Counted from the first letter of the stretch, positions 4,040 to 62,100 are shown. The stretch is DNA of 64,000 bases from Candidatus Fervidifonticultor secundus (GCA_031459385.1 JAVKIP010000014.1:1-64000), one strand, 5' to 3'. Notes: a model not told the origin generated them from the letters alone. Numbers and translations: made by a program.

Positions 4040-4190
4040 AGCATGCGGAAGTCAGACGCCGGGCAACAATCGGGCGGCGGCCCGATCTTCTCCCGGAGCG
4101 CCCCGATACGGCGACATGAGGAATCGGGTTGCGGACTGAAGAAGATCGAACGGAGGGCCGATGCGACCGGGTGGGGACCGTGGCTAGAAT
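4040..4190. promoter_or_regulatory. Divergent promoters with palindromic boxes
   Basis: Boxes 4069-4086 ATCGGGCGGCGGCCCGAT, 4123-4140 and 4145-4162 ATCGAACGGAGGGCCGAT; -10 CATGCT (minus, 4040-4045) and TAGAAT (plus, 4185-4190). Confidence 0.75.
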
Positions 4191-4196
4191 GCAACC

Positions 4197-5999
4197 ATGA
4201 GGGTCGAGCCGTCTCGCACCGCTGCGGGGCCGCTGGAGCCTCCGCAGGCGGTCGAGCGCATCCTGGCCGCCGTGCGCCGGGGCCCGGTGGAAGAGGTGCC
4301 GCTGGCGGAGGCGGCCGGCCGCGTGCTGGCCGCGCCAGTCGTCGCCGCCGAGGACCTGTGGCCATTCCCGCGCGCTGCCATGGACGGCATTGCGGTGCGC
4401 GTCGCCGACGTGGCCGGGGCGTCGCCGGAGCGGCCGGTGCGCCTGCGCCTGGTGGGGGCGGCCTACGCCGGGCAACCCGCAGACCGTCCGCTCGCCGCCG
4501 GCGAGGCTGCGCGCGTCGCCACCGGTGCGCCGGTGCCCGCGGGCGCCGACGCCGTCATTCCCCAGGAGGGCCTCCAGTGGGATGGTGCGGCGGTGCTCGT
4601 CGCCCGGCCCGCGCCGCCTGGCCAGCACATCTTTCCCCCGGGCGAGGATGTCCGCGCCGGCGAGCAGGTGCTGGCCCCGGGCATTGTGCTGCACGGCGGC
4701 CACCTGGGGCTGCTGGCCTCGGTCGGCTGGAGTCGCGTGCCGGTGGTGCGGCGCCCCGTGGTGGCCATCGTCACGTGCGGCGACGAGCTGGTCGCACCTG
4801 ACGAGCCGCTGCGGCCGGGGCTGGTACGCGATAGTAACTCCTACGCCCTCGCCGCGGAGGTACGGGCGCTGGGGGCGCTCCCGACGGTGCTGGGCCGCGC
4901 CCGCGACGACGAGGCCGAGCTCGACGCGCTGGTGCGCCGCGGCCTGGGCACCGCCGACGTCCTGATCACCTGCGGTGGCCTGTCGGTAGGCGAACGGGAT
5001 CTGATCCGGCCGGCGCTGCGCCGCGCCGGCGTCGTCTTCGCCTTCGAAGGCGTGGCGATGAAGCCGGGCGCGCCTGCAGCGTTCGGCACCGGGCCGGCGG
5101 CCAGCGCGGCGCCATCTCCCGAGGGACCGCGCCCGGTGTTCGCCCTGCCCGGCACGCCCAGCGCGTGCCGCGTGGCGTTCGAGGTGCTGGTGACCCCGGC
5201 GTTGGGGCTCATGCTCGGCCGCGCCGATCCTCTGCGGCCGCAGGTGACGGCGCGGCTGGAAGCGCCGCTGCGCGTGCGGCCTGGCCGCCACCGGTATCTC
5301 TGGGCCGCCGCGCGCCTCGGGCCCGACGGCGTGGTCGTGGCCCCGCTCTACGTGCAGAGCACGGCCGCGCTGCGCTCCTCAGCCGACGCCACCGCGCTCA
5401 TCGTGCTGGAGCCCGGGATCGGCGAGGTGCCCGCCGGCGCGCCGGTGCCGGCGCTGCTGCTGGGCCTGCCCCGCACGGACCCGCCGGCGCGTAGCGCGCG
5501 CTGGCCGGTAGCCGTGGGCATCGTGGGCGCGCGCGGCGCGGGCAAGACCGCGCTGATGGAGCGCCTGGTCCCCCTGCTGGCCGCGCGCGGCGCCCGGGTG
5601 GCGGTGGTGAAACACCACGCGCACCTGGCAGCCCTCGATGATGCCGGCACCGACACGGCGCGGGCGATGGCCGCGGGCGCGGCGCGCACGATCCTGGCGG
5701 GCCCAGCCGGCATCATCACCCGCGAGCCGGCCACGTCGCACCCGGCCGGGCCCGCGCTCGACGACGTCCTGCGGCGGGCTGCGCCCGGCGAGCTCGTGTT
5801 GGTGGAAGGGTACAGCGACGCGGCGCTGCCCAAGATCCTGGTGCGTCGGGCCGGCGTGTCCTCCGATCGGCCGGAGCCGCCCGGCCCGTTCCTGGCGGGC
5901 GTCGGCGACGCGCCCTCGATGGCCGCCATACCCTGGTTCTCATGGGACGACCTGGACCGCCTGGCCGCATATCTGCTCTCGCACCTCATGCTGCGCTGA
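4197..5999 (+). CDS. moeA: Molybdopterin molybdotransferase MoeA fused to a C-terminal MobB-like P-loop domain
   Basis: PFPRAAMDG, GDEL, RDSN, GGLSVGERD, MKPG, LPGTP in the N-terminal part; GARGAGKT, VAVVKHH, GTDT, LVEGY in the C-terminal part. Confidence 0.9.
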   Translation: MRVEPSRTAAGPLEPPQAVERILAAVRRGPVEEVPLAEAAGRVLAAPVVAAEDLWPFPRAAMDGIAVRVADVAGASPERPVRLRLVGAAYAGQPADRPLAAGEAARVATGAPVPAGADAVIPQEGLQWDGAAVLVARPAPPGQHIFPPGEDVRAGEQVLAPGIVLHGGHLGLLASVGWSRVPVVRRPVVAIVTCGDELVAPDEPLRPGLVRDSNSYALAAEVRALGALPTVLGRARDDEAELDALVRRGLGTADVLITCGGLSVGERDLIRPALRRAGVVFAFEGVAMKPGAPAAFGTGPAASAAPSPEGPRPVFALPGTPSACRVAFEVLVTPALGLMLGRADPLRPQVTARLEAPLRVRPGRHRYLWAAARLGPDGVVVAPLYVQSTAALRSSADATALIVLEPGIGEVPAGAPVPALLLGLPRTDPPARSARWPVAVGIVGARGAGKTALMERLVPLLAARGARVAVVKHHAHLAALDDAGTDTARAMAAGAARTILAGPAGIITREPATSHPAGPALDDVLRRAAPGELVLVEGYSDAALPKILVRRAGVSSDRPEPPGPFLAGVGDAPSMAAIPWFSWDDLDRLAAYLLSHLMLR

Positions 6000-6050
6000 C
6001 GGCCGGGTGAGGGGTCGGGGCACACCCGTACCAGCGGCGCGCGTCGCCGA

Positions 6051-6096
6051 ATCGTCTCCGCACCCGATGGTGTGCCGTGGGACACCGTGCGATGCT
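6051..6096 (+). promoter_or_regulatory. Box plus extended -10 of proline dehydrogenase
   Basis: ATCGTCTCCGCACCCGAT 6051-6068, 22-nt gap, -10 GATGCT preceded by TG. Confidence 0.6.
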
Positions 6097-6118
6097 GAGC
6101 TCGGGAGGTCGCCGGGTC

Positions 6119-7033
6119 ATGCTGCGCCCCGTTCTGGTGGCACTATCGCGCAGCGAGCCGGCGCGGCGCCTGGTGGCCCGGCCGTTCGTGTTCCGTCGGG
6201 TGGCCCGGCGGTTCGTCGCGGGCGAGACCGCCGATGCGGCACTGCAGGTGGTCGCCGAACTGAACGCCCGCGGCCTGGCGGCCACGCTGGACATCCTCGG
6301 CGAGGGGACCACGGCCGAAGCCGACGCGCAGCGCGCCGCAATCGCCTACCTGGACTTGCTGGATGCGATCGGCACGCGGCGCCTCCAGAGCCACGTCTCG
6401 GTGAAGCTGTCCCAGCTCGGGCTCGACCTGTCGGCAGAACTGGCGGTGCGCCTCCTGGCGCAGATCGTCCGGCGCGCGGCGGAGGTCGGGACATTTGTGC
6501 GCGTCGACATGGAGGACAGCCGGCGCCTGCCGGGCATCTTGCGGGTCTTCGACCGCGTCTGGGAGGCCGGCTGGCACACCGTGGGCGTGGCGCTCCAGGC
6601 GTACCTGTACCGGACGCCACAGGACGTGGAGCGGTACATCGCCCGGGGCGTGAGCATCCGCCTGTGCAAGGGCGCCTACGCCGAGCCGCCGCAGATCGCC
6701 TATCCGCGCAAGGCCGACGTGGACCGGGCCTTCGCGGCCCTGGCCGAGCGCCTGCTGATCGCCGGCAGGTCGCCGGCGCTTGCCACGCACGACGAGCGCC
6801 TGATCGCCGGCGCCCGGCAGTTCGCGGCGGCCCACGGCGTGCCGCTGCAGGCCTACGAGTTTCAGCTCCTCTACGGCATCCGCCGCGACCTCCAGGACGC
6901 TCTGGCGCGCGCCGGCCACCGCGTCCGCGTCTACGTGCCCTTCGGAACCCACTGGTACCCGTACGTCATGCGGCGTATGGCGGAGCGCCCTGCGAACCTG
7001 TGGTTTGTGGCGCGCAACCTCCTCCGTCCGTAA
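6119..7033 (+). CDS. Monofunctional proline dehydrogenase
   Basis: RRFVAGET, SVKLSQLG, VDME, RLCKGAY, ATHD, EFQLLYG, YVPFG, RRMAERP. Confidence 0.93.
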   Translation: MLRPVLVALSRSEPARRLVARPFVFRRVARRFVAGETADAALQVVAELNARGLAATLDILGEGTTAEADAQRAAIAYLDLLDAIGTRRLQSHVSVKLSQLGLDLSAELAVRLLAQIVRRAAEVGTFVRVDMEDSRRLPGILRVFDRVWEAGWHTVGVALQAYLYRTPQDVERYIARGVSIRLCKGAYAEPPQIAYPRKADVDRAFAALAERLLIAGRSPALATHDERLIAGARQFAAAHGVPLQAYEFQLLYGIRRDLQDALARAGHRVRVYVPFGTHWYPYVMRRMAERPANLWFVARNLLRP

Positions 7034-7118
7034 GCTGGGAAGCAGGGGATGCAGTTACCGACCCGCTCCGCGCCGCGGCAGGCACGCGGCCCCGACGGGG
7101 ACCGGAAGGAGGAGAGCG

Positions 7119-7601
7119 ATGGAGTTGTTGACCGTCACCATCGAGAAGCCCGCCGAGGTGAACGTCATCCTGGGGCAGGCGCACTTCATCAAGACCGTGG
7201 AGGACCTGCACGAGGCGCTGACCTCGTCGGTGCCCGGCGTGCAGTTCGGCCTGGCGTTCTGCGAGTCGTCCGGGCCAGCGCTGGTCCGCTGGAGCGGCAC
7301 CGATCCCGCCCTGGTGGAGCTGGCGCGGCAGACGGCTCTTCGCCTGGCGGCCGGCCACTGTTTTGTGATCTTCCTGGGGAACGCCTACCCGATCAACGTG
7401 CTCAACGCCGTCAAGCAGGTCCCCGAGGTCTGCGGCATCTACTGCGCCACGGCTAACCCTGTGGAGGTCGTGCTGGCGGAGACCGCGCAGGGGCGGGGCA
7501 TCCTGGGGGTGATCGACGGCCTGGCCTCCCGCGGCATCGAGGCCGAGGACGATGTGGCGCAGCGGAAGGCACTCCTCCGCAAGATCGGCTACAAGCTGTA
7601 G
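7119..7601 (+). CDS. DUF355 / adenosine-specific kinase family protein
   Basis: NVILGQAHFIKTVED, FCESSG, YPINVLN, CATANP, GRGILGVIDG, IGYKL; AGGAGG RBS. Confidence 0.85.
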   Translation: MELLTVTIEKPAEVNVILGQAHFIKTVEDLHEALTSSVPGVQFGLAFCESSGPALVRWSGTDPALVELARQTALRLAAGHCFVIFLGNAYPINVLNAVKQVPEVCGIYCATANPVEVVLAETAQGRGILGVIDGLASRGIEAEDDVAQRKALLRKIGYKL

Positions 7602-7613
7602 GCCGGAGCCAAG

Positions 7614-7660
7614 ATCCGCCCCATGCCCGATACCCGTCCCACAGCCAGGGGCGCTACCGT
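7614..7660 (+). promoter_or_regulatory. Box plus -10 of the V/A-ATPase operon
   Basis: ATCCGCCCCATGCCCGAT 7614-7631, 23-nt gap, TACCGT 7655-7660. Confidence 0.65.
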
Positions 7661-7668
7661 AGAGAAGG

Positions 7669-8016
7669 ATGCCTACGCCCGAGCATTCGTCCCTATCCCT
7701 GATCGCGGACCTGGAGCGCGAAGCTGACCTGCTGGTCGAGGCGGCCCGCGCGGAGGCGCGCCAGATGGTGGAGGCGGCGCGCCGGGAGGCTGACGTGGCG
7801 CTCCGCGGGGCTCGCGAGGAGGCCCCGGAGATCGAGCAGCGAGCGTTCGCCGACGAGGTGGCCCGCGGGCGCGAGGAGGCCGACGCGCTGCGCCGGGAGT
7901 GGTCGGCCGGGCGCGAGGCGAGGGACGCCCACATCGGCGCACGCCTGCCCCTAGCGGTGGCGGCCGTCGTGGAGGCCGTCCTGGGGGGCCAGAAGATCGA
8001 GGGGTCGGCACCGTGA
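7669..8016 (+). CDS. V/A-type ATPase peripheral stalk subunit G/H
   Basis: Short E/A/R-rich coiled coil immediately before, and overlapping, subunit I. Confidence 0.7.
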   Translation: MPTPEHSSLSLIADLEREADLLVEAARAEARQMVEAARREADVALRGAREEAPEIEQRAFADEVARGREEADALRREWSAGREARDAHIGARLPLAVAAVVEAVLGGQKIEGSAP

Positions 8017-9878
8017 TCGCCGCCATGGTGCGGGTGCAGATCGTGTGTCTGCGCGACCGCTTCCGCGATGTCCTGACGTTCCTGCACGGCCAGGGTGTGG
8101 TCCACCTGGTGCCCTGGCGTCCGCCACCGTCACCGGAGATCCAGCGCGTCGTCCCCCTGCGGCTCGACGAGACGGCGGAGCGCGAGCGCGCGCTGCTGGA
8201 AGAGATCGTGCGGGCGGTGGACGAGGCCGTGGGCCCAGGGCCCGCGGAGGAGACGGCTGCCCTCGAGGGGATGGCCACCGATGCCCTCCACGCCGCCGCG
8301 CGCGAGGGCCTCGAGGCGCTCCGGCAGGCCGAGGCGCGGGTGGCCCGCCTCCGCGACGAACTCCGGCTGCTGCCCCAGTATGCCCACCTGCTGGAAGCGT
8401 TCCTGGCGCAGACCTACGCCTTCGACTGGCGGCCCGACTGGGCGGCCACCGGGCTGGTCCTCGACCGCAGCCGGGAAGCCGACCTGCCGCGCCTGCGCGC
8501 GGCGCTGGAGCACGAGACGCGGGGCCGCATGCAGCTGGCTGTGGCCGTGCTGGACACGGAGCGGCTGGCCGCCGTGTTGCTCTACGACCGGCGCCACCGC
8601 CGGGCGGTGGAGGACCTGCTGTGGGGCCAGGGCGTGGAGCGGCTGAATCTGCCCCCGGAGTTCCTCGGCAAGCCCCTCGAGGACGTGCTGCGGGACATCG
8701 CCGCCCGCCGGGCCGTGCTCCCATCGCAGATCGCCGACGCGGAAGAGGCGGCCCGCCGCCTGCGCCAGGCGAGCGCCGGCTTCCTGCGGGCCGCGCGTGC
8801 CGTTGCGGCCGATCGGCTGGACGAACTGCGGGTCGCCACGCAGGGCCTGGCGTCGCGCCGCACTGTGGCGCTGGCGGGATGGGTGCCCGCGGCCCGGGCG
8901 CCGGCCCTGCGGGCGGCGCTGGAGAGCGCGTTCCCCGGGGAGGTCTTCGTATGGGTGCGCGCGCCGGCGCCGCACGAGCGCGCGGCGGTACCGGTCCTGC
9001 TCGACAACCCCCGCGCGCTCCGGCCGTTCGAAGTGCTGCTGCAGCCGCTGCGGCCCCCGGCCTATGGCACGCTGGACCCCACCTGGATGCTGGCACTGTT
9101 CTTCCCGCTCTTCTTCGGCCTGATGCTGGGTGATGCCGGCTACGGTGGCGTGCTGCTCCTGGGCGCCGCGCTCATGCGGCGGTGGCGCAGTCCCTGGGCG
9201 GGGATCGTGCGCAGCCTGCTGGTGCCCATGGGCAGTAGCGCCATCCTCTTCGGCGTGCTGTTCGGCGAGTACTTCGGCGACCTGGCGCGGCCCTATCTGC
9301 GCCCGCTGCTCTTCGACCGGAAGGAGGCGATGCTGGCCTTCCTCTCCCTGGCGCTCTCCATCGGTCTGGCGCACACGGCGCTGGGAGCCGTGCTCGGCAT
9401 CGTGCAGGCGCGGCGACTGCACGAGCCGCGCCGGGCTGCAGAGCGCGGGGCGCTGCTGGCCGTGCTCGTCACCCTGTTCGCCATCGCCGGCGCGCTGGCC
9501 GGGCTGCTGCCGCAGGCACTGCTGGTGCCCGGTGTGGCGCTGCTGGTCGCTGCGGTGCCGGTGTTGATGTACGCCGGCGGACTGCTGGGCGCCATCGAGG
9601 CGGTCTCGGTCGTGGGCAACGTCCTGTCCTACGCGCGCCTGATGGCGCTGGGGCTGGCCTCCCTGATGCTGGCCGAGGTGGCCAACCGGCTGGGCGGCGC
9701 CGCGGGGAACGTCGTGGTGGGGCTCATCGTGGGCGTGCTGCTGCACGCGCTGAACCTGGTCATGGGCACGTTCAGCCCGACGATCCAGGCGCTGCGGCTG
9801 CACTACGTCGAATGCTTCTCCAAGTTCTACGAGCCCGGAGGGCTCGTCTACCAGCCGTTCGCGCGGAAGGGAGGGTGA
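8013..9878 (+). CDS. atpI: V/A-type ATPase subunit I (a)
   Basis: PVLLDNP, YGTLDPT, FFGLMLGDAGYG, SYARLMAL (essential Arg), ALRLHYVECFSKFY. Confidence 0.95.
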   Translation: MIAAMVRVQIVCLRDRFRDVLTFLHGQGVVHLVPWRPPPSPEIQRVVPLRLDETAERERALLEEIVRAVDEAVGPGPAEETAALEGMATDALHAAAREGLEALRQAEARVARLRDELRLLPQYAHLLEAFLAQTYAFDWRPDWAATGLVLDRSREADLPRLRAALEHETRGRMQLAVAVLDTERLAAVLLYDRRHRRAVEDLLWGQGVERLNLPPEFLGKPLEDVLRDIAARRAVLPSQIADAEEAARRLRQASAGFLRAARAVAADRLDELRVATQGLASRRTVALAGWVPAARAPALRAALESAFPGEVFVWVRAPAPHERAAVPVLLDNPRALRPFEVLLQPLRPPAYGTLDPTWMLALFFPLFFGLMLGDAGYGGVLLLGAALMRRWRSPWAGIVRSLLVPMGSSAILFGVLFGEYFGDLARPYLRPLLFDRKEAMLAFLSLALSIGLAHTALGAVLGIVQARRLHEPRRAAERGALLAVLVTLFAIAGALAGLLPQALLVPGVALLVAAVPVLMYAGGLLGAIEAVSVVGNVLSYARLMALGLASLMLAEVANRLGGAAGNVVVGLIVGVLLHALNLVMGTFSPTIQALRLHYVECFSKFYEPGGLVYQPFARKGG

Positions 9879-9883
9879 CGGAT

Positions 9884-10102
9884 ATGGAGGTGTTCGGCAT
9901 CGCGATCGGGGCGGGGCTCGCCGTCGGGCTGTCGGCCCTGGGGACCGGCTACGCGCAGGCCCGCATCGGCGCGGCCGGGCTTGGCGCCATGGCCGAGCGT
10001 CCCGAGCTAATGGGGTCGAGCGTGATCCTCATGGCCATTCCCGAGACCGCGGTGATCCTCGGGTTCGTGGTGGCCACGATGATCCTGTTGCTGCTGCGGT
10101 GA
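9884..10102 (+). CDS. atpK: V/A-type ATPase proteolipid subunit K/L (single hairpin)
   Basis: GYAQARIGAAG...IPETAVILG with carrier Glu; GGAGGG RBS. Confidence 0.95.
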   Translation: MEVFGIAIGAGLAVGLSALGTGYAQARIGAAGLGAMAERPELMGSSVILMAIPETAVILGFVVATMILLLLR

Positions 10103-10142
10103 GACAGCGGACGGCTGGCCGGGCTGCCGGGAGATCGCGGCG

Positions 10143-10742
10143 GTGACGGACCGGGCACTGGCCGAGGCGATCATGCGCCGCGCGGAAGCGGAGCGCGCGC
10201 AGATTCTGGCAGAGGCCGCAGCCGAGGCCGCTGCACTGCGGGCCAGGGCGCAGGCCGATGCCGAGGCCGTGCGAGCCGCTGCGGCTGCCGCGGGCCGGAC
10301 GCGCGGCCGGCGCGAAGCAGCGCGCCTGCTGAGCCGCGCCCGCATGGACCTGCTGGCCGAGGAGACCCGGCTGCTGGATGCGGCAGTCCAGCGGGTCTTC
10401 GCCGGAGCTGCCGACGCTCTGGCCGCTGCGCGGCAGCGGCCCGACTATCCGGCGGTCTTCCGCCGCCTGCTCGATGAGGCCCTGGCGCAGGCGCCCCGCG
10501 ACGGCCCCATTGTCGTGCACGTCGACCCGCAGGATGCGGCGCTCGCGGCGGCCGGGGAGTTGCCGCAGGCCGCGCGTGTCGTACCCGACCTGCGCAGCGC
10601 AGGCGGCGCCATCGTCGAGGCATGGGCGGGGATGTGTGTCGTCGACAACACCCTGGAGACGCGCCTGCAGGCCCAGGCGCGCCGGCTGCGCCCGATGGTC
10701 GGGCGCCTGCTGGAGGCGGGATGGTCGGCTACGACTACCTGA
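10143..10742 (+). CDS. atpE: V/A-type ATPase subunit E
   Basis: N-terminal coiled coil; C-terminal GGAIV..VVDNTLETRL. Confidence 0.88.
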   Translation: MTDRALAEAIMRRAEAERAQILAEAAAEAAALRARAQADAEAVRAAAAAAGRTRGRREAARLLSRARMDLLAEETRLLDAAVQRVFAGAADALAAARQRPDYPAVFRRLLDEALAQAPRDGPIVVHVDPQDAALAAAGELPQAARVVPDLRSAGGAIVEAWAGMCVVDNTLETRLQAQARRLRPMVGRLLEAGWSATTT

Positions 10743-11725
10743 GCGCCCGGGCGCGGGGACTGCTGGGACGGCTGCTGCCGGCAGCGCGCGTGCGCGCGCT
10801 GTGCGCCCTCGACGGCGTCGAGGCCCTCCTGGCGGAGCTGTCGGTGACGCCCGGATACGCGGCAGACGTGGCCGCGGTCGCCGGCATCGCGCCGCCGCTG
10901 GAGGCCTGCGCGCAGGCCCTCGAGCGCCACCGGGTGCGCACGGCGCGGGTGCTGTGGGCGGCCGCCGGCGGCGAGGCGCGCGAGCTGATCGGCATCCTGC
11001 TCAGCCGCCACGACCTCGAGGCGGTCAAGATGATTTTACGGCGGTGGCACGCGCGCGAGGCCGGCGTCTGGCACGCGCCCGCGCCCGGTCTGCTCGACGG
11101 GCAGACGCTGCGGGCGCTCGATGCGGCCGGCAGCGTCCTGGCGCTGGCGGACCTGCTGGCGCTGACCGGTCCGGCCGGGGCGGCGCTGGCCCGCGCGCTC
11201 AGGGCCGCGCCCGCTGCCCGTCTTGCCGACCTCGAGGACCGGCTGGACGTCGCGTGGGCCGCGGATGCCCTGGCACGCTGCGGGTGCGGCCCGAACGGGC
11301 GCCTGGTCCGCGAGGTGCTGGGGTGGGAGATCGATACCCGCAACCTGCTGGCCGCGCTGCGGGGAGGGAGCGAGCACCTCGTCGTCCTGCCCGGCGGTCG
11401 CTATCTGCACGACGATCTGCTACAAGCCATCGCCGCAGAGGGGGACCGCGCGGCGGCGGCCGCCTGGCTCGCCCCCACCCCGTATGCCGGTGTGCTCGAC
11501 GGCGGCGCGCCGGTGCCCTGGCGCCGCATCGAGCGTGCCCTCGAGCGCCGCGTGCTGGCACTGCACCGGCGGATGCTGTTCGCCAGCGACCCGCTGGGCA
11601 TCGCGCCCGTCAGCTTTTTCCTCGCGGCCAAGCAGGCCGAGGTGCGCAACCTGCGCACGGTGGCCGCCGGCCTCGCCGCCGGGGTGCCGCCGTCGCTGAT
11701 GGAGGAAGAACTCGTCGATGCGTAA
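10721..11725 (+). CDS. atpC: V/A-type ATPase subunit C (d), divergent
   Basis: YDYLSARARG, EIDTRNL, KQAEVRNLR; operon position. Confidence 0.85.
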   Translation: MVGYDYLSARARGLLGRLLPAARVRALCALDGVEALLAELSVTPGYAADVAAVAGIAPPLEACAQALERHRVRTARVLWAAAGGEARELIGILLSRHDLEAVKMILRRWHAREAGVWHAPAPGLLDGQTLRALDAAGSVLALADLLALTGPAGAALARALRAAPAARLADLEDRLDVAWAADALARCGCGPNGRLVREVLGWEIDTRNLLAALRGGSEHLVVLPGGRYLHDDLLQAIAAEGDRAAAAAWLAPTPYAGVLDGGAPVPWRRIERALERRVLALHRRMLFASDPLGIAPVSFFLAAKQAEVRNLRTVAAGLAAGVPPSLMEEELVDA

Positions 11726-12035
11726 GGTCGTGGCCGTCTGTCCCGAGGCCGTGGCCGTGGGGTTCGCGCTGGCCGGGGTGGAGACGCGGGCCTACACCAC
11801 CGCGCGCCAGGGGCGGGCGCACCTCCTGGCCCTGGTGCGGTCGGCCGAGGCCGGCGTGGTGCTGGTGGACGACGCGATCGTCGACGCGCTGGAGGCACCG
11901 GCGCGCCGGATGGTGGAGGAGAGCGACGACCCGCTGGTCGTGCCGGTCCCCATGGCGCGCGGGGCCGCGCTGGAACGCGAGTACCTGGAACAGATGATCC
12001 GGCGCGTGATCGGCTACCAGGTCCGGCTGCGGTAG
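11718..12035 (+). CDS. atpF: V/A-type ATPase subunit F
   Basis: VGFALAGV, IRRVIG; 105 aa between C and A. Confidence 0.9.
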   Translation: MRKVVAVCPEAVAVGFALAGVETRAYTTARQGRAHLLALVRSAEAGVVLVDDAIVDALEAPARRMVEESDDPLVVPVPMARGAALEREYLEQMIRRVIGYQVRLR

Positions 12036-12053
12036 GGGACACGGAGAGGACCG

Positions 12054-17228: not shown

Positions 17229-17269
17229 GCGGCACCGCCGGGAGGGCCGCGGCCGCGTCCCCGCAGGCG
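17197..17269. repeat. 35-bp tandem direct repeat (3 mismatches)
   Basis: 17197-17231 CCGCCGGGAGCGCTGCGGCCGCGTCCCCGTAGGCG vs 17235-17269 CCGCCGGGAGGGCCGCGGCCGCGTCCCCGCAGGCG. Confidence 0.7.
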
Positions 17270-17755: not shown

Positions 17756-17828
17756 CGTTTCCTCCTCCTTGCGGTGGCATTGGACACGCGCGGCGCAGCC
17801 TGTATGCCCTGCCCCACGCGCGCGATGG

Positions 17829-18182: not shown

Positions 18183-18254
18183 ATTTTTATAATAGCATCC
18201 CGCAACGGCCGCTGAGCGAGGGCGCTACCAGGGCCTCCAGGATCGCCTCGGGGG

Positions 18255-46734: not shown

Positions 46735-46743
46735 GGCGCCTCC

Positions 46744-48696: not shown

Positions 48697-48711
48697 GGGG
48701 TGCCTCCTCCC

Positions 48712-49464: not shown

Positions 49465-49472
49465 GCCGTCGG

Positions 49473-52199: not shown

Positions 52200-52233
52200 G
52201 GAGCGCCTCCGGGACCTGCGCCGTCTGCGCCCT

Positions 52234-52332
52234 ATTGTGCCCGATGTGCGCGTCCGACGCCATCCGCCCCGGGGTGGAGGAGACGGGTCCGGCGGTGGCC
52301 CGATGCCGGCCGCCTCACCCGCGGGCTAGAAT
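52234..52332. promoter_or_regulatory. Divergent promoters with two boxes
   Basis: Degenerate box 52262-52279 is 22 nt from CACAAT (minus); GTCCGGCGGTGGCCCGAT 52287-52304 is 22 nt from TAGAAT. Confidence 0.7.
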
Positions 52333-52389
52333 CAAGGTAGACCGGATTGAACGCATGGGACTCACGGTGGCGCACGGAGGAGGGGTGCC

Positions 52390-54835: not shown

Positions 54836-55028
54836 CTGCTCGCCGGACGGCACGCCCCTCACCCCCGTTGCCCGCAGAGTTCGGGGTGCCAGGGACGGCC
54901 TCCTGGAACGCTGCCGCGGCGGCCGATGTCGCCTGCGCCCGGCCGGCTCGTGGCTGCCATCCGGAGCAGGTGCTACCATGGCGGTACCGGCGTATTGCCC
55001 GCAGGGCGGGCACTCCAGGGGGAGGCAG

Positions 55029-56099
55029 ATGCTCACCGCTGCTGACGTGATGACGACGCGGCCGGTGGTCGTTGCCGTGTCGACGACCGTGGCCGAGGCC
55101 ATCCGGCTCATGCACGAGCGGGGGATCTCCAGCGTGCTGGTCGCGCCCGCGGTTGGGGCCGCTGACCACGGCATCGTGACCATGCGGGACGTGGTCACGA
55201 AGATCGTCACGGAAGGGTTCGACCCGGATACCCTGACCGTCGGCGATATCATGACGTGGCGCCTGGTCACGGCCCGGCCCGCATGGCCGCTCCGCCGGAT
55301 CGCGGAGGTCATGGCGCAGGCCCGGGTCCGCCGCCTGCCGGTGGTGGACGGGGGCGCATTGGTCGGCGTGGTGAGCGACACCGACCTGTTCACCGCACTG
55401 GTGCCGCGCCACGACTGGGAGCACGTGCGGCGGGTGCGCAAGGAACGGGCCCGCCACCGGACCCGCCGCTCCGACCCCGCCAGGACGGTAGGCGACATCA
55501 TGTCGGCGCCGGTGCTCACCATCGACCGCGAGGCCACCGTGGCGGCCGCCGTGCGCAAGATGGTGGCGGCCGGCATCAGCAGCCTGCTGGTGACTGACGT
55601 GCCCGGCGGCGGCATTCTCACCAAGCGCGACGTCGTCCTCAAGGTGGTGGCCGCCGGCGGCGACCCGGAGCGGATCACCGTGGGTACCCTGATGTCCGCG
55701 CCGGTCCGCGCTGTGGAGGTCGAGACCACCATCGAGGAATGCTCGCGGCGGATGGGCGACCTGCGCGTGCGCCGTTTCCCCGTCACCCGGGCCGGGGAGA
55801 CCGCGGGCATCGTCAGCGACTCCGACATCCTGGCAGCCGTCGCCGGCGCCCGGTGGATGGGCCGCCGGCGGGGGCCCACGGCCGCCATCGCCGCCGACGT
55901 GATGCGCCCGTCGGCGGCCGTCCCGCTCTCCGCTGGCGCGGAGGCGCTGAGCCCGGAGCTCTCGATCTGGGAGTGTGCGGCGCGGCTGGCCCGCGCCGGC
56001 GCCCGCGAACTGCCCGTGGTCCAGCAGGGACGGGTCATCGGTGTCGTCGGCGAAGCCGACATCGTCCGGGCTCTGGCGGAGCGTGGCGGACCTGACTGA
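55029..56099 (+). CDS. Multi-CBS domain protein (about 5 CBS motifs)
   Basis: Repeated ISSxLV..GIxT.RD and VRRxPV..GxVSD.D units; GGAGG RBS. Confidence 0.9.
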   Translation: MLTAADVMTTRPVVVAVSTTVAEAIRLMHERGISSVLVAPAVGAADHGIVTMRDVVTKIVTEGFDPDTLTVGDIMTWRLVTARPAWPLRRIAEVMAQARVRRLPVVDGGALVGVVSDTDLFTALVPRHDWEHVRRVRKERARHRTRRSDPARTVGDIMSAPVLTIDREATVAAAVRKMVAAGISSLLVTDVPGGGILTKRDVVLKVVAAGGDPERITVGTLMSAPVRAVEVETTIEECSRRMGDLRVRRFPVTRAGETAGIVSDSDILAAVAGARWMGRRRGPTAAIAADVMRPSAAVPLSAGAEALSPELSIWECAARLARAGARELPVVQQGRVIGVVGEADIVRALAERGGPD

Positions 56100-56235
56100 C
56101 GGGGCAAGATCGTCGACGCGCCCTACGCCTCTTGCCGGGAGATGATCCGCCGAAGCGGTCCCGGGGTCCGTTCAAGGGCCCACACCGGCGCGCGCGGCGG
56201 GCGGGCGTCCGTCGGCGTGCGTCCGCCGCCCGCAG

Positions 56236-59133
56236 CTACACGTCCCTGCCCACCTGGGTCGTCTCCCGCAGCGCCACCTGCGCGGCCGCCAGCCGCGCCA
56301 CGGGCACGCGGAACGGGGAGCAGCTGACGTAGTTCAGCCCCAGCTCGTGGCAGAAGGCGATCGACGCCGGGTCGCCGCCGTGCTCGCCGCAGATGCCCAC
56401 CTCGAGGTCGGGGCGGACGGCGCGGCCTCGCTCCACGGCGATCCGCATCGCCTCGCCCACGCCGGCGCGGTCCAGCGTCTGGAACGGGTTCTCCGGCAGG
56501 ATGCCGCGCTCGACGTAGCGCAGCAGGAACTTCCCCTCGGCGTCGTCGCGGGAGATGCCGAAGATCGTCTGGGTCAGGTCGTTGGTGCCAAAGGAGAAGA
56601 ACTCCGCGATCTGGGCGATCTCGCCGGCCACCAGGCACGCCCGCGGGATCTCGATCATCGTGCCGAACTTGTACGGCACGGTGACGCCCTGCCGCTCCAT
56701 CACCGCCCGGGCGGCCGCTTCCAGCTCGCGGTGCGTCTCACGCAGTTCGTTCACGTGGCTGGTCAGCGGGATCATGATCTCGGGCAGGGCCGTGATCCCT
56801 CGCTTGGTCGCCCGGCACGCCGCCTCGATGATGGCCCGCACCTGCATGACGGTGATCGCCGGGTAGGTCAGTCCCAGCCGGATGCCCCGGAGGCCCAGCA
56901 TGGGGTTGGCCTCGCGCATGGCGCGGACCAGGCGCAGCTCGGCTTCCTTCTCTGCCAGCCGCGCCCGCAGGGCCGCCAGCGACAGCTGGCCCTTCCGCGG
57001 CCGCCCGCGGCGGCGCAGGACCTGCAGCGTCTCGACGCGGGCCCGCAGGCCCGCCACCTCCTCCAGCAGCTCGTCGTGGGACGGCAGGAACTCGTGCAGC
57101 GGCGGGTCGATGAGCCTGATGATCACCGGCAGGCCATCCATGGCCTCGAACAGACCCTCGAAGTCGCGCCGCTGCAGCCGCTCCAGCTTCCGCAGTGCAC
57201 CCTCGTAGGCGCGTACCGCCGGCGAGGCGCGCACGGCCCGGCGTGCCTCGGCCAGCGCGGTCCGCGCCCGCGGGTCATCGGGCTGCTGGACCAGGGCCTG
57301 CTCGGCGGCTCGCACGCGGTCGTAGGCGGCCTGGGCCTCGGCCGCGTGGAGGATCATCTGGCGCACGATCGGCAGGCGATCGGTCTCGAAGAACATGTGC
57401 TCGGTCCGGGTCAGCCCGATGCCCTCGGCGCCGAACGCCCGGGCCCGACGGGCGTCGCGAGGGTAGTCGGCGTTGGCCCACACGCCCAGGCGCCGGAACC
57501 CGTCCGCCCACCCCAGCAGTATCATCAGCTCGCGCTGCTCCTCCAGGGTGGGCTCGGTCACCGCCACCTGCCCGGCGAACACCTCGCCCGTGGTGCCGTC
57601 GATGGACAGGTACTCACCTTCCCGGACCGTGATGCCGTTCACCGACAGCCGCCGGCGCTCGGGATCCACGTCGATCGCCTCGCATCCGGCCACGCACGGC
57701 ACGCCCAGGCCCCGCGCCACCACCGCCGCGTGGCTGGTGGCGCCGCCGCGGCTAGTGAGGATGCCCCGGGCCCGCAGCATGCCGTGCACGTCGTCGGGGT
57801 TGGTCTCCGGCCGCACCAGGATCACCGGCTTGCCTGCCCGGCCCCACGCTTCGGCGAGGGCGGCGTCGAACGCGGCCAGCCCTACCGCGGCGCCGGGCGA
57901 GGCGTTGAGCCCGCGGGCCAGGAACCGGCCGTCCCGCTGCGCGGCCTCCTTGGCCTTGGGGTCGAACCGCGGGTGCAGCAGCTGGTCGATTTGCCCGGGC
58001 TCCACGCGCAGCACCGCCTCCTCCCGCGAGATGAGCCCTTCGTCGGCCATGTCCACGGCGATCTTCACCGCTGCCTGCGCCGTGCGCTTGCCGGTGCGTG
58101 TCTGCAGCATCCACAGCCGCCCGCGCTCGATGGTGAACTCCACGTCCTGCACGTCGCGGTAGTGCCGTTCCAGCAGCTGGCAGATCCGCAGGAACTCCTG
58201 GTAGACGTCGGGGAGGTCGTGGGCCAGCTCGCTGATGGGCTTGGGCGTGCGGATGCCGGCCACGACGTCCTCGCCCTGGGCGTTGACCAGGTACTCGCCG
58301 TAGACCTGTTTCTCGCCCGTGGCCGGATTGCGCGTGAACGCCACGCCGGTGGCCGAGTCCGGGCCCATGTTGCCGAAGACCATGGTCTGGACGTTGGCGG
58401 CGGTCCCCAGGTCGTGGGCGATGCCGTGGAAGGTCCGGTAGTCGACGGCGCGCTTGCCCCACCATGAGTCGAAGACGGCCTGGATCGCCATGCGCAGCTG
58501 CTCATGGGGGTCCTGCGGGAACTCCACGCCGCGCTCCTTCTTGATGAGCGCTCGGAAGGCGGCCACCAGCGCTTTGAGGTCGTCGGCGTCCAGGGCGGTG
58601 TCCTCAGTCACGCCCTTGCGCCGCTTCGCCTGTCGGATCAGGTGTTCGAACCGGTCGCCCGGGATGTCGAGGACGATCTTCCCGAACATCTGCACGAGCC
58701 GGCGGTAGGCGTCCCAGCCGAAGCGCGGATTGCCGGTGAGCCGGATCAGGCCTTCCAGCGTCCGATCGTTCAGCCCCAGGTTCAGCACGGTGTCCATCAT
58801 CCCCGGCATGCTGAACTTGGCGCCCGAGCGTACCGACAGGAGCAGCGGGTTGGCCGGGTCGCCGAAGCGCTTGCCGGTCTTGGTTTCCACAGCCCGCAGC
58901 CGCTCGCCGACCTCGTCCATCAGGCCGTCGGGGAACCGACGGCCGGCGCGCATGTACTCGACGCAGGCCCGGGTCGTGATGGTGAAGCCCGGCGGCACCG
59001 GCAGGCCGATGCGGCTCATCTCCGCCAGGCCGGCGCCCTTGCCGCCCAGCAGGTCTCGCATCGAGGCGTCGCCTTCTTCGAAGAGCAGGGTCCAGCGGAA
59101 CTGCGTACGGGGTGCTTCTGCGGTAGTCGTCAT
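56236..59133 (-). CDS. ppdK: Pyruvate, phosphate dikinase
   Basis: LGGKG, SVRSGA..SMPGMMDT, TSHAAVVAR, NPMLG.RG.R, GTNDLTQ, CGEHGG; TATAAT at 59172-59177 (minus). Confidence 0.98.
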   Translation of the reverse strand: MTTTAEAPRTQFRWTLLFEEGDASMRDLLGGKGAGLAEMSRIGLPVPPGFTITTRACVEYMRAGRRFPDGLMDEVGERLRAVETKTGKRFGDPANPLLLSVRSGAKFSMPGMMDTVLNLGLNDRTLEGLIRLTGNPRFGWDAYRRLVQMFGKIVLDIPGDRFEHLIRQAKRRKGVTEDTALDADDLKALVAAFRALIKKERGVEFPQDPHEQLRMAIQAVFDSWWGKRAVDYRTFHGIAHDLGTAANVQTMVFGNMGPDSATGVAFTRNPATGEKQVYGEYLVNAQGEDVVAGIRTPKPISELAHDLPDVYQEFLRICQLLERHYRDVQDVEFTIERGRLWMLQTRTGKRTAQAAVKIAVDMADEGLISREEAVLRVEPGQIDQLLHPRFDPKAKEAAQRDGRFLARGLNASPGAAVGLAAFDAALAEAWGRAGKPVILVRPETNPDDVHGMLRARGILTSRGGATSHAAVVARGLGVPCVAGCEAIDVDPERRRLSVNGITVREGEYLSIDGTTGEVFAGQVAVTEPTLEEQRELMILLGWADGFRRLGVWANADYPRDARRARAFGAEGIGLTRTEHMFFETDRLPIVRQMILHAAEAQAAYDRVRAAEQALVQQPDDPRARTALAEARRAVRASPAVRAYEGALRKLERLQRRDFEGLFEAMDGLPVIIRLIDPPLHEFLPSHDELLEEVAGLRARVETLQVLRRRGRPRKGQLSLAALRARLAEKEAELRLVRAMREANPMLGLRGIRLGLTYPAITVMQVRAIIEAACRATKRGITALPEIMIPLTSHVNELRETHRELEAAARAVMERQGVTVPYKFGTMIEIPRACLVAGEIAQIAEFFSFGTNDLTQTIFGISRDDAEGKFLLRYVERGILPENPFQTLDRAGVGEAMRIAVERGRAVRPDLEVGICGEHGGDPASIAFCHELGLNYVSCSPFRVPVARLAAAQVALRETTQVGRDV

Positions 59134-59273
59134 GCGTCTGCCTCCAGCCAGCCCGTGGCATACACGATGGCATTATACGACACGGGGCGGCGGCCGCCGG
59201 ACGACGGCCGCCACCCCGGAGAGCATCTGCGTCGCTGTCCGTCCCTGCGCCCGCCTCCCTGGGCGCGGACGCC

Positions 59274-59861
59274 TCAGGCCTGCTGGCGTGCCGGCGCCGC
59301 GGTCCTCTTGAAGACCCGCCCGGGCCGCCACGGCGTGCCCAGTAGCGGCAGCAGGTAGTAGTCCAGACCGATGTACCCGGCGACCTTCCAGGCCAGGATC
59401 AGCAGGATCGCCAGGAGGAACATGACCGGATTGGTGCTGGCGGTGCCTGCCATCATGAAGTTCCAGTTCATGAACGCGCCGAAGAAGGCCGCGATCCCGG
59501 TGAAGATCCCCAGCACCAGCGCGATCCCGACCAGCAGCTCGCCCCAGGCCACCAGCTTGGCGAACCAGGTATGCGTCTCGGTGGCCAGCAGGTAGTTGAT
59601 GAAGTCGCGATACCAGTCGAACGCGATGGGCGGACGGCCCCGCGCCGGAATCTGGACGGCGCGCTCCCAGAAGCCCTTGACCGCGGCACCGGTGACCACC
59701 CAGTCGGGGTCGTTCACCTTGTGCAGCGCCGCATCGATCCACTGCCAGCCCACCCAGACGCGCACGATCAGCCACAGCCAGACCACCCTGGTGCTGCTGA
59801 AGAGGAACGTGGCCAGCGGGGGATCCTGGATCTCCGTCCGGCCGACGTTGACTTTCGCCAT
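59274..59861 (-). CDS. DoxX/DoxD-family membrane protein
   Basis: RVWVGWQW, WGELLVG, FMNWNFMMAG..STNP, AGYIGLD. Confidence 0.88.
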   Translation of the reverse strand: MAKVNVGRTEIQDPPLATFLFSSTRVVWLWLIVRVWVGWQWIDAALHKVNDPDWVVTGAAVKGFWERAVQIPARGRPPIAFDWYRDFINYLLATETHTWFAKLVAWGELLVGIALVLGIFTGIAAFFGAFMNWNFMMAGTASTNPVMFLLAILLILAWKVAGYIGLDYYLLPLLGTPWRPGRVFKRTAAPARQQA

Positions 59862-59883
59862 CGTTCCTCACCTCCCGTCTTGC

Positions 59884-59991
59884 AGGCTACGGGCAGACCG
59901 ATAGCGTCGGTATCGGGCGCAAGTTCGATTTTTGGCCCGGGCCCCCCTCCGGCGGGGGCCCGATGTCCGCCCCGGGGCGAGACGGTATCCT
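59884..59991. promoter_or_regulatory. Divergent promoters with two boxes
   Basis: ATCGGGCGCAAGTTCGAT 59912-59929 is 22 nt from TAGCCT (minus); CTCCGGCGGGGGCCCGAT 59947-59964 is 21 nt from TATCCT. Confidence 0.72.
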
Positions 59992-60032
59992 GGAGCCGGG
60001 ATCGGTTGTCGGCTCCCGAGGAGGCGAGGGGC

Positions 60033-60413
60033 ATGCTGGAGGATCTGATCGGGCGCATCGCGCGCATCGACGAACAGGCCACGGTCAAGACGGTCTTTGG
60101 CGATCCCATCCGGGCCGATGGCCGCACCCTTGTGCCGGTCGCCAGAGTAGCCTACGGGTTCGGCTTCGGCCTGGGCCGCAATCAGGAGAAGGAGCAGGGG
60201 ACCGAGGAGACCGGCGAGGGTGGCGGGGGCGGGGGCGGCGCCTGGGTGCGGCCGATGGCGGTCCTGGAGATCACCGACGCCGGCACCAGGGTCCGGCCGA
60301 TCGTGGACGTGACGCGGCTCGTGCTGGCCGGCCTGGCGCTGGTAGCGTGGAACGTCTTCTGGGTCGCCTACACCGTGCGGGCGGTCGAGCGCGCCCGCGC
60401 GCGGCGGGCGTAG
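60033..60413 (+). CDS. YtfJ/GerW-family protein with C-terminal TM
   Basis: TVFGDPI, LVPVARVAYGFGFG, GGGGGGG..RPMAVLEI. Confidence 0.88.
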   Translation: MLEDLIGRIARIDEQATVKTVFGDPIRADGRTLVPVARVAYGFGFGLGRNQEKEQGTEETGEGGGGGGGAWVRPMAVLEITDAGTRVRPIVDVTRLVLAGLALVAWNVFWVAYTVRAVERARARRA

Positions 60414-60441
60414 CGCCCGGGGTGCTGGGGTGTGGCTTCAT

Positions 60442-61716
60442 TCAAAGCAGCAGGGCCGCCAGTGCCACCGTCCCGGCCACCACGGCCGCGCCCTGCACGA
60501 CCACGAGCGTGCGACGGAACGGGGCGCTGCCCAGCCAGAGGGCATACGCGGCCTTGGCTGCAGTGTTGGCGAGAACGGCCAGCGCAATTGCGCTCGCCGC
60601 CACCTCTGGGCGGAGATGGCGGCCAGCTGCGCTGGCCAGCGCCAGCGTGATCGCGTCCACGTCGGTCAGGCCGGCGAGCACTGCGGCAGCTACCACGCCC
60701 CACGCGCCCGTGTAGCGCGACGCCGCTTCTACGGCCAGCAGCACCAGCGCGTAGAGCGCGGTGAAGCGGATGGCCTGCGACAGCCGGAACGGGCTGGCCA
60801 CACCCGGCGCTGCCTCGCGCGCTGGTGCGCCCCGCCGGGCCAGCACCGCCACGGTTGCCACACCACCGGCCAGCGCGGCGCCGAGGAACGGCGCGAGTCC
60901 GGGCAGTACCGCCGGCCCCGCGATAGCCGTCAGCGTGCCGACGCGCACCAGCATGACCAGCGACGCCAGACCCGCAGCGACGGCCAGCGGGGTGGCCCGC
61001 GCCGGTTCCTCCCGGGAGCGCGTCGCGAACGACACGGTGACCGCCGTGCTGGAGACCAGGCCGCCCAGCAGCCCGCTGACGTACAGCCCGCGCGCTTCCC
61101 CCCAGATTCGCATCCCGATGAACGCCAGGAACGAGAAACCGCAGACCAGCACGACTATGCCCCAGAGGTGGCGCGGGTTCCACACGCCCCAGGGACCGTA
61201 GCGCGCGTCGGGGAGGAGGGGGAGCACGACCGCCGCGATCACCGCCAGCACCAGCGCTGCCCGGACCTCGTCGCGGCTCAGCCCGCGCGGGAACGCCTCC
61301 AGGCGCTCTTTGGACGCCAGCAGCACCGTCATGCCGATGCCCAGGACGGCCGCCGGCAGCAGTGCGCCGGCGCCAGCCAGCACCCCGACCCAGTACGTAG
61401 CCAGCGCCGCGGTCTCGGTGGTCGTGCCGATGTCGCTGCGGCTGCTGCGGAAATACGAGACGGTGACCAGTGCGGCCACGGCCACGAACCCGGTGATCAC
61501 GGCCACACCGATCTGCCCCGATGCCAGGACCAGGACCGCTCCGAGGACGCAGAACAGGGGAAACGTCCTGACGCCTGCGAACTGGGGCGTGCCCGCACCC
61601 TCGGCGCGCTCCCGCTCGATGCCGATCAGGCCGCCGAGCGCCGCCGCCACCATCAGCCGCAGGAGGATGGACTCGGTCGCCTCGGCAGGCTGGAAGAGGT
61701 CGAGCCCGCCAGTCAT
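60442..61716 (-). CDS. MgtC/SapB + DUF4010 membrane protein
   Basis: GLIGIERE, AGVRTF, GTTTE, GGLVSSTAVT, GLTDVDAIT. Confidence 0.92.
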   Translation of the reverse strand: MTGGLDLFQPAEATESILLRLMVAAALGGLIGIERERAEGAGTPQFAGVRTFPLFCVLGAVLVLASGQIGVAVITGFVAVAALVTVSYFRSSRSDIGTTTETAALATYWVGVLAGAGALLPAAVLGIGMTVLLASKERLEAFPRGLSRDEVRAALVLAVIAAVVLPLLPDARYGPWGVWNPRHLWGIVVLVCGFSFLAFIGMRIWGEARGLYVSGLLGGLVSSTAVTVSFATRSREEPARATPLAVAAGLASLVMLVRVGTLTAIAGPAVLPGLAPFLGAALAGGVATVAVLARRGAPAREAAPGVASPFRLSQAIRFTALYALVLLAVEAASRYTGAWGVVAAAVLAGLTDVDAITLALASAAGRHLRPEVAASAIALAVLANTAAKAAYALWLGSAPFRRTLVVVQGAAVVAGTVALAALLL

Positions 61717-61788
61717 GGCTCGTACTCCGCGGTCAGTGCCACGCGGCCCGCGAGGGTACGGGCGGACAGCGCCATGCCGGCCCGGCGT

Positions 61789-61920
61789 CTAGGCTTCCGC
61801 CGCCCGGTGCCAGCGCCAGGCGAAGTAGAGGATATACGTGGCCAGTGCGGCGAGCGCCAGGCCGGTCAGCAGGCCCGCGCCCAGCAGCGTCCAGCGCACC
61901 ACCCGCGCGGTCTCTGTCAT
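61789..61920 (-). CDS. 43-aa single-TM small protein
   Basis: MTETARVVRWTLLGAGLLTGLAALALATYILYFAWRWHRAAEA; box and weak -10 directly upstream. Confidence 0.55.
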   Translation of the reverse strand: MTETARVVRWTLLGAGLLTGLALAALATYILYFAWRWHRAAEA

Positions 61921-61926
61921 GTTCCC

Positions 61927-62100
61927 ATTACACCACAGCCCGGTCGCCCAATTCCCTCGGCCGGCCGCCCGATTTCTCCCCTCGGGCCGGCAGCCGACCG
62001 GCGGTGGGGGGTGCGCGGTACGACGGGAGCGCGGGCGCGGCCGGCCCCGGGCGGGCCGGGTGGGCACCCGATGGCGCGCTGCCGCCGGTCGTGCCATGCT
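61927..62100. promoter_or_regulatory. Divergent promoters with boxes
   Basis: Boxes 61956-61973, 61981-61998 and GCCGGGTGGGCACCCGAT 62055-62072 (22 nt from CATGCT 62095-62100). Confidence 0.68.

Follow-up and report, generated by a model that had tools for sequence, protein, structure and literature searches.

The OsdR regulon of Streptomyces coelicolor is described as clustered around its regulator (SCO0167-SCO0219) and as including universal stress proteins (USPs), pyruvate phosphate dikinase (PPDK) and nitrate reductase (PMC5069765). In staphylococci and Limosilactobacillus fermentum, the reported NreBC system combines an oxygen-responsive NarL-type activator of nitrate respiration with a GC-rich palindrome (PMC5694512, PMC8139620). 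FNR has the reported consensus TTGAT-N4-ATCAA, and the Staphylococcus aureus kinase AirS is reported to hold a [2Fe-2S] cluster via C-x7-C-x-C-x17-C (PMC4601167). Here we analyzed an 18-bp palindrome, ATCGGGC-N4-GCCCGAT (hereafter the box), which recurs ahead of genes in a 64,000-nucleotide stretch of Candidatus Fervidifonticultor secundus (GCA_031459385.1 JAVKIP010000014.1:1-64000; hereafter the window), and which we predict to be the operator of a two-component system that probably responds to low oxygen. The window corresponds to contig C6:1-64000 of this genome, called G000 below, and has 72% GC; its genes are our own model-based calls. The phylum under study, Sysuimicrobiota (CSP1-3), is described as uncultured, widespread soil and hot-spring bacteria that are likely facultative anaerobes (PMC11604079, PMC11962464), and the term “two-component” was not found in the main text of these descriptions. 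A literature search with the motif halves, which left most subscription papers, supplements and regulon databases outside its scope, found no title or abstract describing such an operator.

The exact sequence ATCGGGC-N4-GCCCGAT occurs in the window four times without mismatch, four times with one mismatch and six times with two, and all 14 copies are intergenic. We scored the window with a weight matrix trained on 13 sites from other contigs and on none from the window itself, so that the test is not circular. At a threshold of 12 bits, the intergenic DNA (5.2 kb) contains 16 matches and the coding sequence (58.8 kb) none, while 500 Markov-2 resamplings of the intergenic DNA gave a mean of 0.11 and a maximum of 2 matches. 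Across the whole genome, 17 copies with at most one mismatch are intergenic (0.31 Mb), compared with 2 in coding sequence (3.0 Mb). The comparison with coding and shuffled DNA proposed in an earlier, sequence-only reading of this stretch thus gives a strong intergenic excess, with coding sequence nearly empty: the palindrome is real and conserved. That reading had listed 25 sites, all of which are intergenic by our gene calls. Its four perfect copies (4069, 35618, 38077 and 47308) were borne out by the sequence scan, and its near-perfect ones carry one mismatch (22960, 42040, 42507 and 42571) or two (28176 and 59912). On the matrix trained outside the window, 20 of the listed sites score 8.7-25 bits, while five are half-sites or weak (28126, -13 bits; 52262, -4; 61981, 4; 42594, 5; 47333, 7), and the half-site reported at 39723 turned out to be the right half of a box that starts at 39712.

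The position of the box relative to promoters is also constrained. Around the 39 intergenic matches of at least 11 bits in G000, a -10-like hexamer, [TC]AnnnT, lies 21-23 nt away in 29 of the 58 directions facing a gene start, 21 of them at exactly 22 nt, and in none of the 20 that point at a gene end. We pooled 172 boxes from G000 and from fetched loci. In this set, the hexamer is found at 22 nt 79 times, at 23 nt 25 times, at 21 nt 21 times and at any other distance at most nine times, so that the spacing histogram peaks sharply at 22 nt. The pooled consensus reads (A)ATCGGGY-N4-RCCCGAT, with the extra A enriched on the distal side. Taking the start of the -10 as -12, the box covers -52 to -35 with its centre at -43.5, and the implied -35 hexamer matches TTGACA at no more than three of six positions in 112 of the 125 promoters that could be oriented by their -10. 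Class II activators have this layout, in which a dyad stands at a set distance from the -10 and the -35 is poor, and 22 nt exceeds what a sigma spacer allows. Because of the fixed 22±1 nt spacing, the centre at about -43.5 and the poor -35, it is very probable that the box is a class II activator site, as predicted from this geometry. The sequence-only reading had centred the box near -43, overlapping the -35; the centre agrees, and the overlap is one base, the box abutting the -35 rather than covering it. That reading had also counted about 20 sites with a -10-like hexamer 21-23 nt away on the gene side, and we found one, loosely defined, at 21 of the 25, including the box at 38077, which indeed has one at 22 nt in both directions. 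The better conservation claimed for the promoter-proximal half is a trend only (30 versus 18 of 79 promoters, p=0.11). In the 125 oriented boxes, pairing between the arms is not kept: positions 7 and 12 hold 23 C-A versus 18 T-G combinations, and positions 4 and 15 are unpaired in 38. Because the arms vary without keeping base pairs and an Rfam search gave no match, a structured RNA is unlikely.

The window belongs to a larger regulon island, of which it contains 2561..62620 and which continues on contigs C30, C14 and C13. There, further boxes precede molybdoenzyme operons (one of them Nar-like, a label resting on Pfam domains and operon layout), as well as genes for NosZ, a NirK-like copper protein, hemerythrin, 2-oxoacid:ferredoxin oxidoreductases, two Rrf2 proteins, hydrogenases and more CBS and USP proteins. 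In G002, a near-complete relative of the same genus in 4 contigs, the homologues of C6, of two C30 genes, of C14 and of C13 are contiguous. This region holds 32 boxes of at least 11 bits between 668.9 and 824.0 kb, followed by a kinase-regulator operon at 828.4-830.2 kb, with no box in the preceding 9 kb or the following 36 kb, and 16 of the 20 near-exact sites of G002 lie within 4% of the genome. The island encodes USPs, CBS proteins, PPDK, a second V-ATPase, nitrate, N2O and polysulfide reductases, and hydrogenases. Since these homologues are contiguous and their boxes are bounded at both ends, the regulon spans ~160 kb in one island, of which the window is one arm, and the ~58 kb given by the sequence-only reading was too small. 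Isolated boxes in G000 precede gap-pgk-tpi (C45), two operons on C58 and two on C56 and C7. The perfect boxes at G000:C58:58552 and 63306 lead operons with enoyl-CoA hydratase, LeuCD-like, acyl-CoA ligase and ABC genes, and the former is conserved in G002.

The candidate regulator, encoded at G000:C13:19634-20290(-), has a receiver and a GerE helix-turn-helix (HTH) domain (PF00072+PF00196). Its partner in the same operon, at G000:C13:20266-21465(-), is a soluble GAF-HisKA_3-HATPase kinase (PF13185+PF07730+PF02518), and together they display the NarL/LuxR two-component layout of a receiver-HTH protein with a HisKA_3 kinase. G000 has ten GerE-domain matches, one of which, this C13 regulator, sits at the end of the island in G002; its closest named relatives are from Ca. 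Sysuimicrobiota, HR32 and Armatimonadota, an affiliation that puts the organism in Sysuimicrobiota. We counted sites in a panel of 80 genomes of the phylum, at least 80% complete, using as a control the same arms with an N6 instead of an N4 spacer. The genomes contain 634 N4 sites versus 198 control sites, and an N4 excess of at least 5 was found in 33 of the 61 genomes with a C13-type regulator versus 1 of the 19 without, the exception being an 86% complete genome that keeps the cognate kinase. The motif excess thus recurs across related genomes, where the sequence-only reading had suggested looking, and tracks the regulator. In a panel of 80 loci fetched by similarity to the regulator, a box of at least 16 bits is present at 16 of 22 Sysuimicrobiota-type loci and at 4 of 5 other loci whose recognition helix reads S[IV]KT[VIA]QTHRAH (20 of 27 same-helix loci overall), versus 3 of the 53 whose helix differs. 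In two same-helix genomes from a single Chloroflexota class, N4 sites outnumber control sites by 49 to 11 and by 41 to 7; the N4 sites are spread over many contigs and show the 22-nt spacing near the regulator, as in Sysuimicrobiota, while four other-helix genomes give 6/4, 4/4, 9/8 and 3/4. On the strength of this co-occurrence, of the helix-box link, of its recurrence in Chloroflexota and of the failure of the other island regulators (see below), the box is, in all likelihood, the operator of the C13 regulator, a dimeric NarL/LuxR-family protein with a predicted NreC-like DNA-binding domain. Because 10 of the 22 Sysuimicrobiota-type loci have a box no more than 350 nt upstream of the gene for the regulator, these sequences also suggest autoactivation. 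Several genomes of the phylum have two copies of the regulator, and a second, more distant class of GAF paralogue (~40% identity) is found in phylum genomes without the regulator as well.

Concerning the signal, the GAF domain of the kinase harbors the motif C79-x-C81-x17-C99 (C-x-C-x17-C), present in 101 of 108 homologues together with a nearly invariant H115, and this motif matches the last three cysteines of the AirS cluster motif. At the Chloroflexota locus L106, a same-helix regulator lies behind a kinase whose GAF domain matches DosT/DevS structures (E 6e-37). The AlphaFold model of the C13 kinase (predicted local distance difference test, pLDDT, 86) retrieved as top Foldseek matches only the kinase core, and an ESM Atlas search returned only generic GAF clusters. 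Given the likeness of the Cys-GAF to AirS, the DosT-like sensor at L106 and the list of targets, low oxygen or redox state is the likely signal. We also noted that at L106:790-2585 and L088:6034-7700, both from Chloroflexota, a box-led cytochrome b-like gene pair directly precedes the DosT-like kinase and its regulator.

With the same regulator and activator site, the kinase might instead read sulfide or sulfane sulfur, nitric oxide or general redox, or might be active when oxidised, which we consider unlikely. A three-cysteine [2Fe-2S] kinase of Bacillus licheniformis is reported to sense sulfide (PMC13478379), in one reported model AirS is fully active when oxidised (PMC8774646), and genes for a rhodanese, for a Psr/Phs-type enzyme and for an SQR/FCSD-like flavoprotein lie in the window itself. 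However, the targets span nitrate, nitrite and N2O respiration, hydrogenases, USPs and glycolysis, no box lies in the gap upstream of the SQR-like gene (30858-32012), and the same-helix regulator is elsewhere paired with a DosT-like heme GAF.

Less plausible still is that the box is bound by another, co-inherited factor such as an island Rrf2 protein, CRP/FNR or Rex. The island does contain two Rrf2 genes, the 7-4-7 layout also fits the reported Rex site TTGTGAA-W4-TTCACAA (PMC2883068), and co-occurrence alone cannot show binding. However, both Rrf2 genes are themselves box-led, and the helix-box link across two phyla points to a NarL-type protein. Rex was rejected, as no Rex domain was found in G000, and so was CRP/FNR, as no CRP-type HTH was found at E 1e-10 in G000, G004, G014, G028, G056 or G075, all of which have a clear excess; motif-poor genomes do have one.

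It is very improbable that the box is read by another NarL-type regulator of the island, namely the one in the window (32464-33126), the one on C14 or the DosR-like one on C30, even though all three belong to NarL/LuxR, lie in or beside the island and, for the first, stand amid boxes. Orthologues of the in-window regulator (at least 75% identity) are present in 12 of the 80 genomes without association with the excess (p=0.56), and an excess of at least 5 is found in 29 of the 68 genomes that have no orthologue; a partial 77% match exists in G001. For the C30 regulator, none of five motif-rich genomes gives a match above 44%, and both G001 and G002, each with 20 sites, lack a counterpart of the C14 regulator at E 1e-60.

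Hardly credible, finally, is that the palindrome serves a repressor, belongs to an alternative-sigma promoter, or represents a REP-like (repetitive extragenic palindromic) or RNA-hairpin repeat: its 7-bp arms around a 4-nt loop could form a hairpin, and the sites at 4123, 42571, 61956 and 61981 have no -10 at 21-23 nt, but the unpaired variation of the arms, the presence of only 1 of the 39 G000 matches (at least 11 bits) between convergent genes and the empty Rfam search led us to reject a hairpin or REP, and a -10 at a fixed distance, combined with a poor -35, suits an activator rather than a repressor or an overlong sigma spacer.

Several points weigh against the C13 regulator and its proposed signal. 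The excess is below 5 in 28 of the 61 regulator-bearing genomes, including 7 of 7 in genus g4, whose sites are few or apparently shifted to ATAGGGY, a pattern that matches in all seven g4 genomes, only one to three times each and near the control level. Outside the phylum, 3 of the 5 same-helix genomes have little or no excess (10/6, 6/4 and 3/5), and all five represent one class. No box of at least 11 bits precedes the kinase-regulator operon in G002, and none is listed there in G000. The genomes are incomplete and, being related, not independent, so that the p-values overstate the case; the helix grouping was drawn post hoc, with the data already seen; and the co-occurrence testing covered only part of the transcription-factor families. 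The sole RNA run, a metatranscriptome (0.07 share), consists of contigs only, without start sites, and is uninformative. In the kinase, the first AirS cysteine is replaced by serine, and for AirS itself reports conflict, the active form being given as the reduced or as the oxidised one (PMC8774646). As a separate observation, the g4 genome G015 (C1:30001-170000) keeps a similar island and the regulator, with few boxes, reading ATAGGGY or ATACGG, a possible operator drift.

Retaining the C13 pair as the system that acts through the box, we propose the following mechanism. The C13 kinase would probably carry an Fe-S cluster on Cys79, Cys81, Cys99 and perhaps His115, with which it would read oxygen or the redox state. 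At low oxygen, it would phosphorylate the C13 regulator, whose dimer, binding at -52 to -35, would recruit sigma-70 polymerase to promoters with a poor -35. This would turn on a DosR-like survival set (USPs, CBS proteins, a hibernation factor, PPDK, acyl-CoA ligase, gap-pgk-tpi and the second V-ATPase) together with anaerobic respiration, i.e., Nar-like, NirK-like, NosZ, Psr/Ttr-like and hydrogenase enzymes and 2-oxoacid:ferredoxin oxidoreductases. On balance, this whole chain, from a low-oxygen GAF kinase through a NarL/NreC-type regulator and the box to the island, appears probable.

In the window, the boxes, their -10 hexamers and the genes that they lead are as follows.

4069..4086: perfect box; CATGCT at 4040-4045 (-), 23 nt away; GltD-like Fe-S flavoprotein (2561-4000).
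4123..4162 (+): two degenerate boxes, at 4123 and 4145; TAGAAT at 4185-4190; MoeA-MobB fusion (4197-5999).
6051..6068 (+): box of 12.8 bits; GATGCT at 6091-6096; proline dehydrogenase (6119-7033).
7614..7631 (+): box of 13 bits; TACCGT at 7655-7660; second V-type ATPase operon (7669-15873), then a kinase (15870-17228).
22960..22977 (-): box with 1 mismatch; TACGCT at 22932-22937; sugar-type ABC operon (18255-22849).
28126..28143 (-): weak half-site; CACCAT at 28098-28103; receiver-like open reading frame (ORF) without Pfam match (27600-28079), and downstream a Psr/Phs-type molybdoenzyme, its Fe-S and NrfD subunits and a rhodanese (23142-27603).
28176..28193 (+): box with 2 mismatches; TAGACT at 28217-28222; citrate synthase (28285-29610).
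35618..35635 (-): perfect box; TACGCT at 35591-35596; malic enzyme (34250-35554), and behind it a membrane kinase (33119-34240) and then a NarL-type regulator (32464-33126).
35675..35692 (+): box; TATCGT at 35715-35720; USP (35758-36270).
38077..38094 (both strands): perfect bidirectional box; TACCCT at 38049-38054 (-) for formate-tetrahydrofolate ligase (36267-37916), CATGCT at 38117-38122 (+) for a YbaK-like gene (38161-38655).
39712..39729 (+): box with degenerate distal half; TATAGT at 39751-39756; alpha/beta hydrolase (40016-40684).
42040..42057 (-): box with 1 mismatch; weak -10 TATCAC at 42011-42016; 5'-short ABC solute-binding ORF (40672-41985).
42507..42524 (-): box with 1 mismatch; TATGGT at 42479-42484; single-domain receiver (about 42100-42465).
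42571..42611 (+): strong box at 42571 and weak tandem box at 42594; TACACT at 42635-42640; CBS protein (42673-43347).
47308..47350: perfect box at 47308 (-) with TACGCT at 47280-47285, for a CBS protein (46744-47223) and a DeoC-like protein (46066-46734); weak box at 47333 (+), for a USP (47413-47892).
52262..52304: half-site at 52262 (-) with CACAAT at 52234-52239, for a GNAT-fused acyl-CoA ligase (49473-52199); box at 52287 (+) with TAGAAT at 52327-52332, for a baeRF10 ribosome-hibernation-like protein (52390-53496).
59912..59964: divergent pair; box with 2 mismatches at 59912 (-) with TAGCCT at 59884-59889, for DoxX (59274-59861) and probably PPDK (56236-59133); box at 59947 (+) with TATCCT at 59986-59991, for a YtfJ-like protein (60033-60413).
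61956..62072: group of a box at 61956 (no -10 at 21-24 nt) and a weak box at 61981, with MgtC/DUF4010 (60442-61716) on the - side, and a box at 62055 (+) with CATGCT at 62095-62100, for a YbaK-like protein (62147-62620).

The control of most operons, as claimed by the sequence-only reading, comes down to about half: boxes in 14 intergenic regions lead 23 of the 42 unit heads, which were loosely defined. The kinase-regulator pair at 33119-34240/32464-33126 is probably a target of its box and not the master regulator, and PPDK is probably co-transcribed with DoxX. Two stand-alone receiver-like proteins (27600-28079 and about 42100-42483) stand directly behind boxes and may tune the phosphorelay, and a membrane histidine kinase without adjacent regulator (15870-17228), conserved in G002, closes the V-ATPase operon. 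This operon (7669-15873, box-led) is one of two of V type, the other starting at G000:C45 111637. The two YbaK-like paralogues (38161-38655 and 62147-62620), both box-led, and baeRF10 (52390-53496) could form a translation-shutdown module. The box at 39712 lies in an unusually long intergenic stretch (39705-40016, 310 nt; no Rfam match), with the gene start ~260 nt past the box-linked -10. In G002 (C1:707099-708329, aligned with window 40672-42057), the box precedes a second RpoD-like sigma-70 gene, 58% identical to the G000 housekeeping RpoD, where G000 has the ABC solute-binding ORF at 40672-41985, seemingly missing its N terminus. An ArsR and heavy-metal P-type ATPase pair (43540-46022), without box and absent at the matching place in G002, looks inserted, and the ORFs at 53468-54853, 29628-30059 and 30364-30843, inside the island and kept in G002, have no Pfam or NCBIfam match.

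The box provides a sequence tag for putative oxygen-controlled genes in dozens of genomes, and predicts a low-oxygen role for enzymes whose direction or function is uncertain, namely Nar/Nxr-like enzymes, hydrogenases, the C58 aromatic-acid operons, YbaK, baeRF10 and DUF4010. With regulator, operator and sensor named, the system can be studied in a laboratory host, with no need for a culture of the organism itself, and the box may guide enrichment. More tentatively, and with somewhat more doubt than conviction, we suggest that DosR and NreC are joined by a third master system for hypoxia, so far undescribed, in which one regulator-operator pair would be served by interchangeable oxygen sensors, and a self-switching island of 160 kb would grow by capture of genes that acquire boxes. 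If so, the sensors would be a 3Cys-His Fe-S GAF in Sysuimicrobiota and a DosT-like heme GAF in the Chloroflexota class, and nearly the whole anaerobic lifestyle of the genus would sit in one island with its own master switch.

Compared with known systems, class II promoters of FNR/CRP likewise have a dimeric site abutting the -35 and serve anaerobic respiration genes, but the box differs from TTGAT-N4-ATCAA and no clear CRP/FNR protein was found in G000; similarly, it differs from the Rex site TTGTGAA-N4-TTCACAA, with no Rex protein in G000. AirSR (YhcSR) of S. aureus, compared by motif, likewise has a soluble GAF-HisKA_3 kinase, the C-x-C-x17-C of the C13 kinase representing three of the four AirS cysteines. 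An unannotated Bacillus kinase, which we take to be YhcY-like, also has C-x-C-x17-C and is 31% identical to the C13 kinase over 386 aa; its partner regulator has another helix, EQTVKTHVSN, and in this one Bacillus comparison no AirR-like helix was seen here. In the DNA-binding domain there is a resemblance to the regulator of the L. fermentum nar/nre locus, whose HTH is 56% identical to that of the C13 regulator (37% over the full length), but whose recognition helix differs (TKTVEAHKAN versus IKTVQTHRAH). However, the NreB sensor is a four-Cys PAS protein ([4Fe-4S]) whereas the C13 kinase has a GAF domain, and the regulon here is much broader than that of NreBC. Because the L. fermentum nar locus, when inspected, held no convincing N4 palindrome, we do not equate the box with the NreC site.

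Another close parallel is with DosR/DevR of Mycobacterium tuberculosis and OsdR, which, from the sources consulted, likewise combine a NarL/LuxR regulator and a GAF kinase with a GC-rich palindrome and an autoregulatory site, and whose regulon, clustered as it is here, also includes USPs, PPDK and a nitrate reductase (Nar-like here). The operator is different: the OsdR site is reported as the 16-nt AGGGCCGATCGGCCCT (PMC5069765), while the box is 18 nt long, with ATC/GAT at its ends and a GGG that lies closer to the centre by one base, so that it departs from a DosR-type operator in length, ends and GGG register. In addition, among PDB entries VraR (E 6e-51) matches the C13 regulator better than DevR does (E 2e-33), the C13 kinase has a single Cys-GAF without DosS match, a heme GAF of the DosS/DosT kind being found only at L106, and the island, unlike those of DosR/OsdR, spans ~160 kb with whole respiratory chains. 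The principle is already known from DosR/OsdR, so that what is added is another architecture among such systems, not regulation of a new kind. Taken together, these comparisons suggest, by analogy, a system that works like a DosR/OsdR regulon with a different operator and a different sensor.

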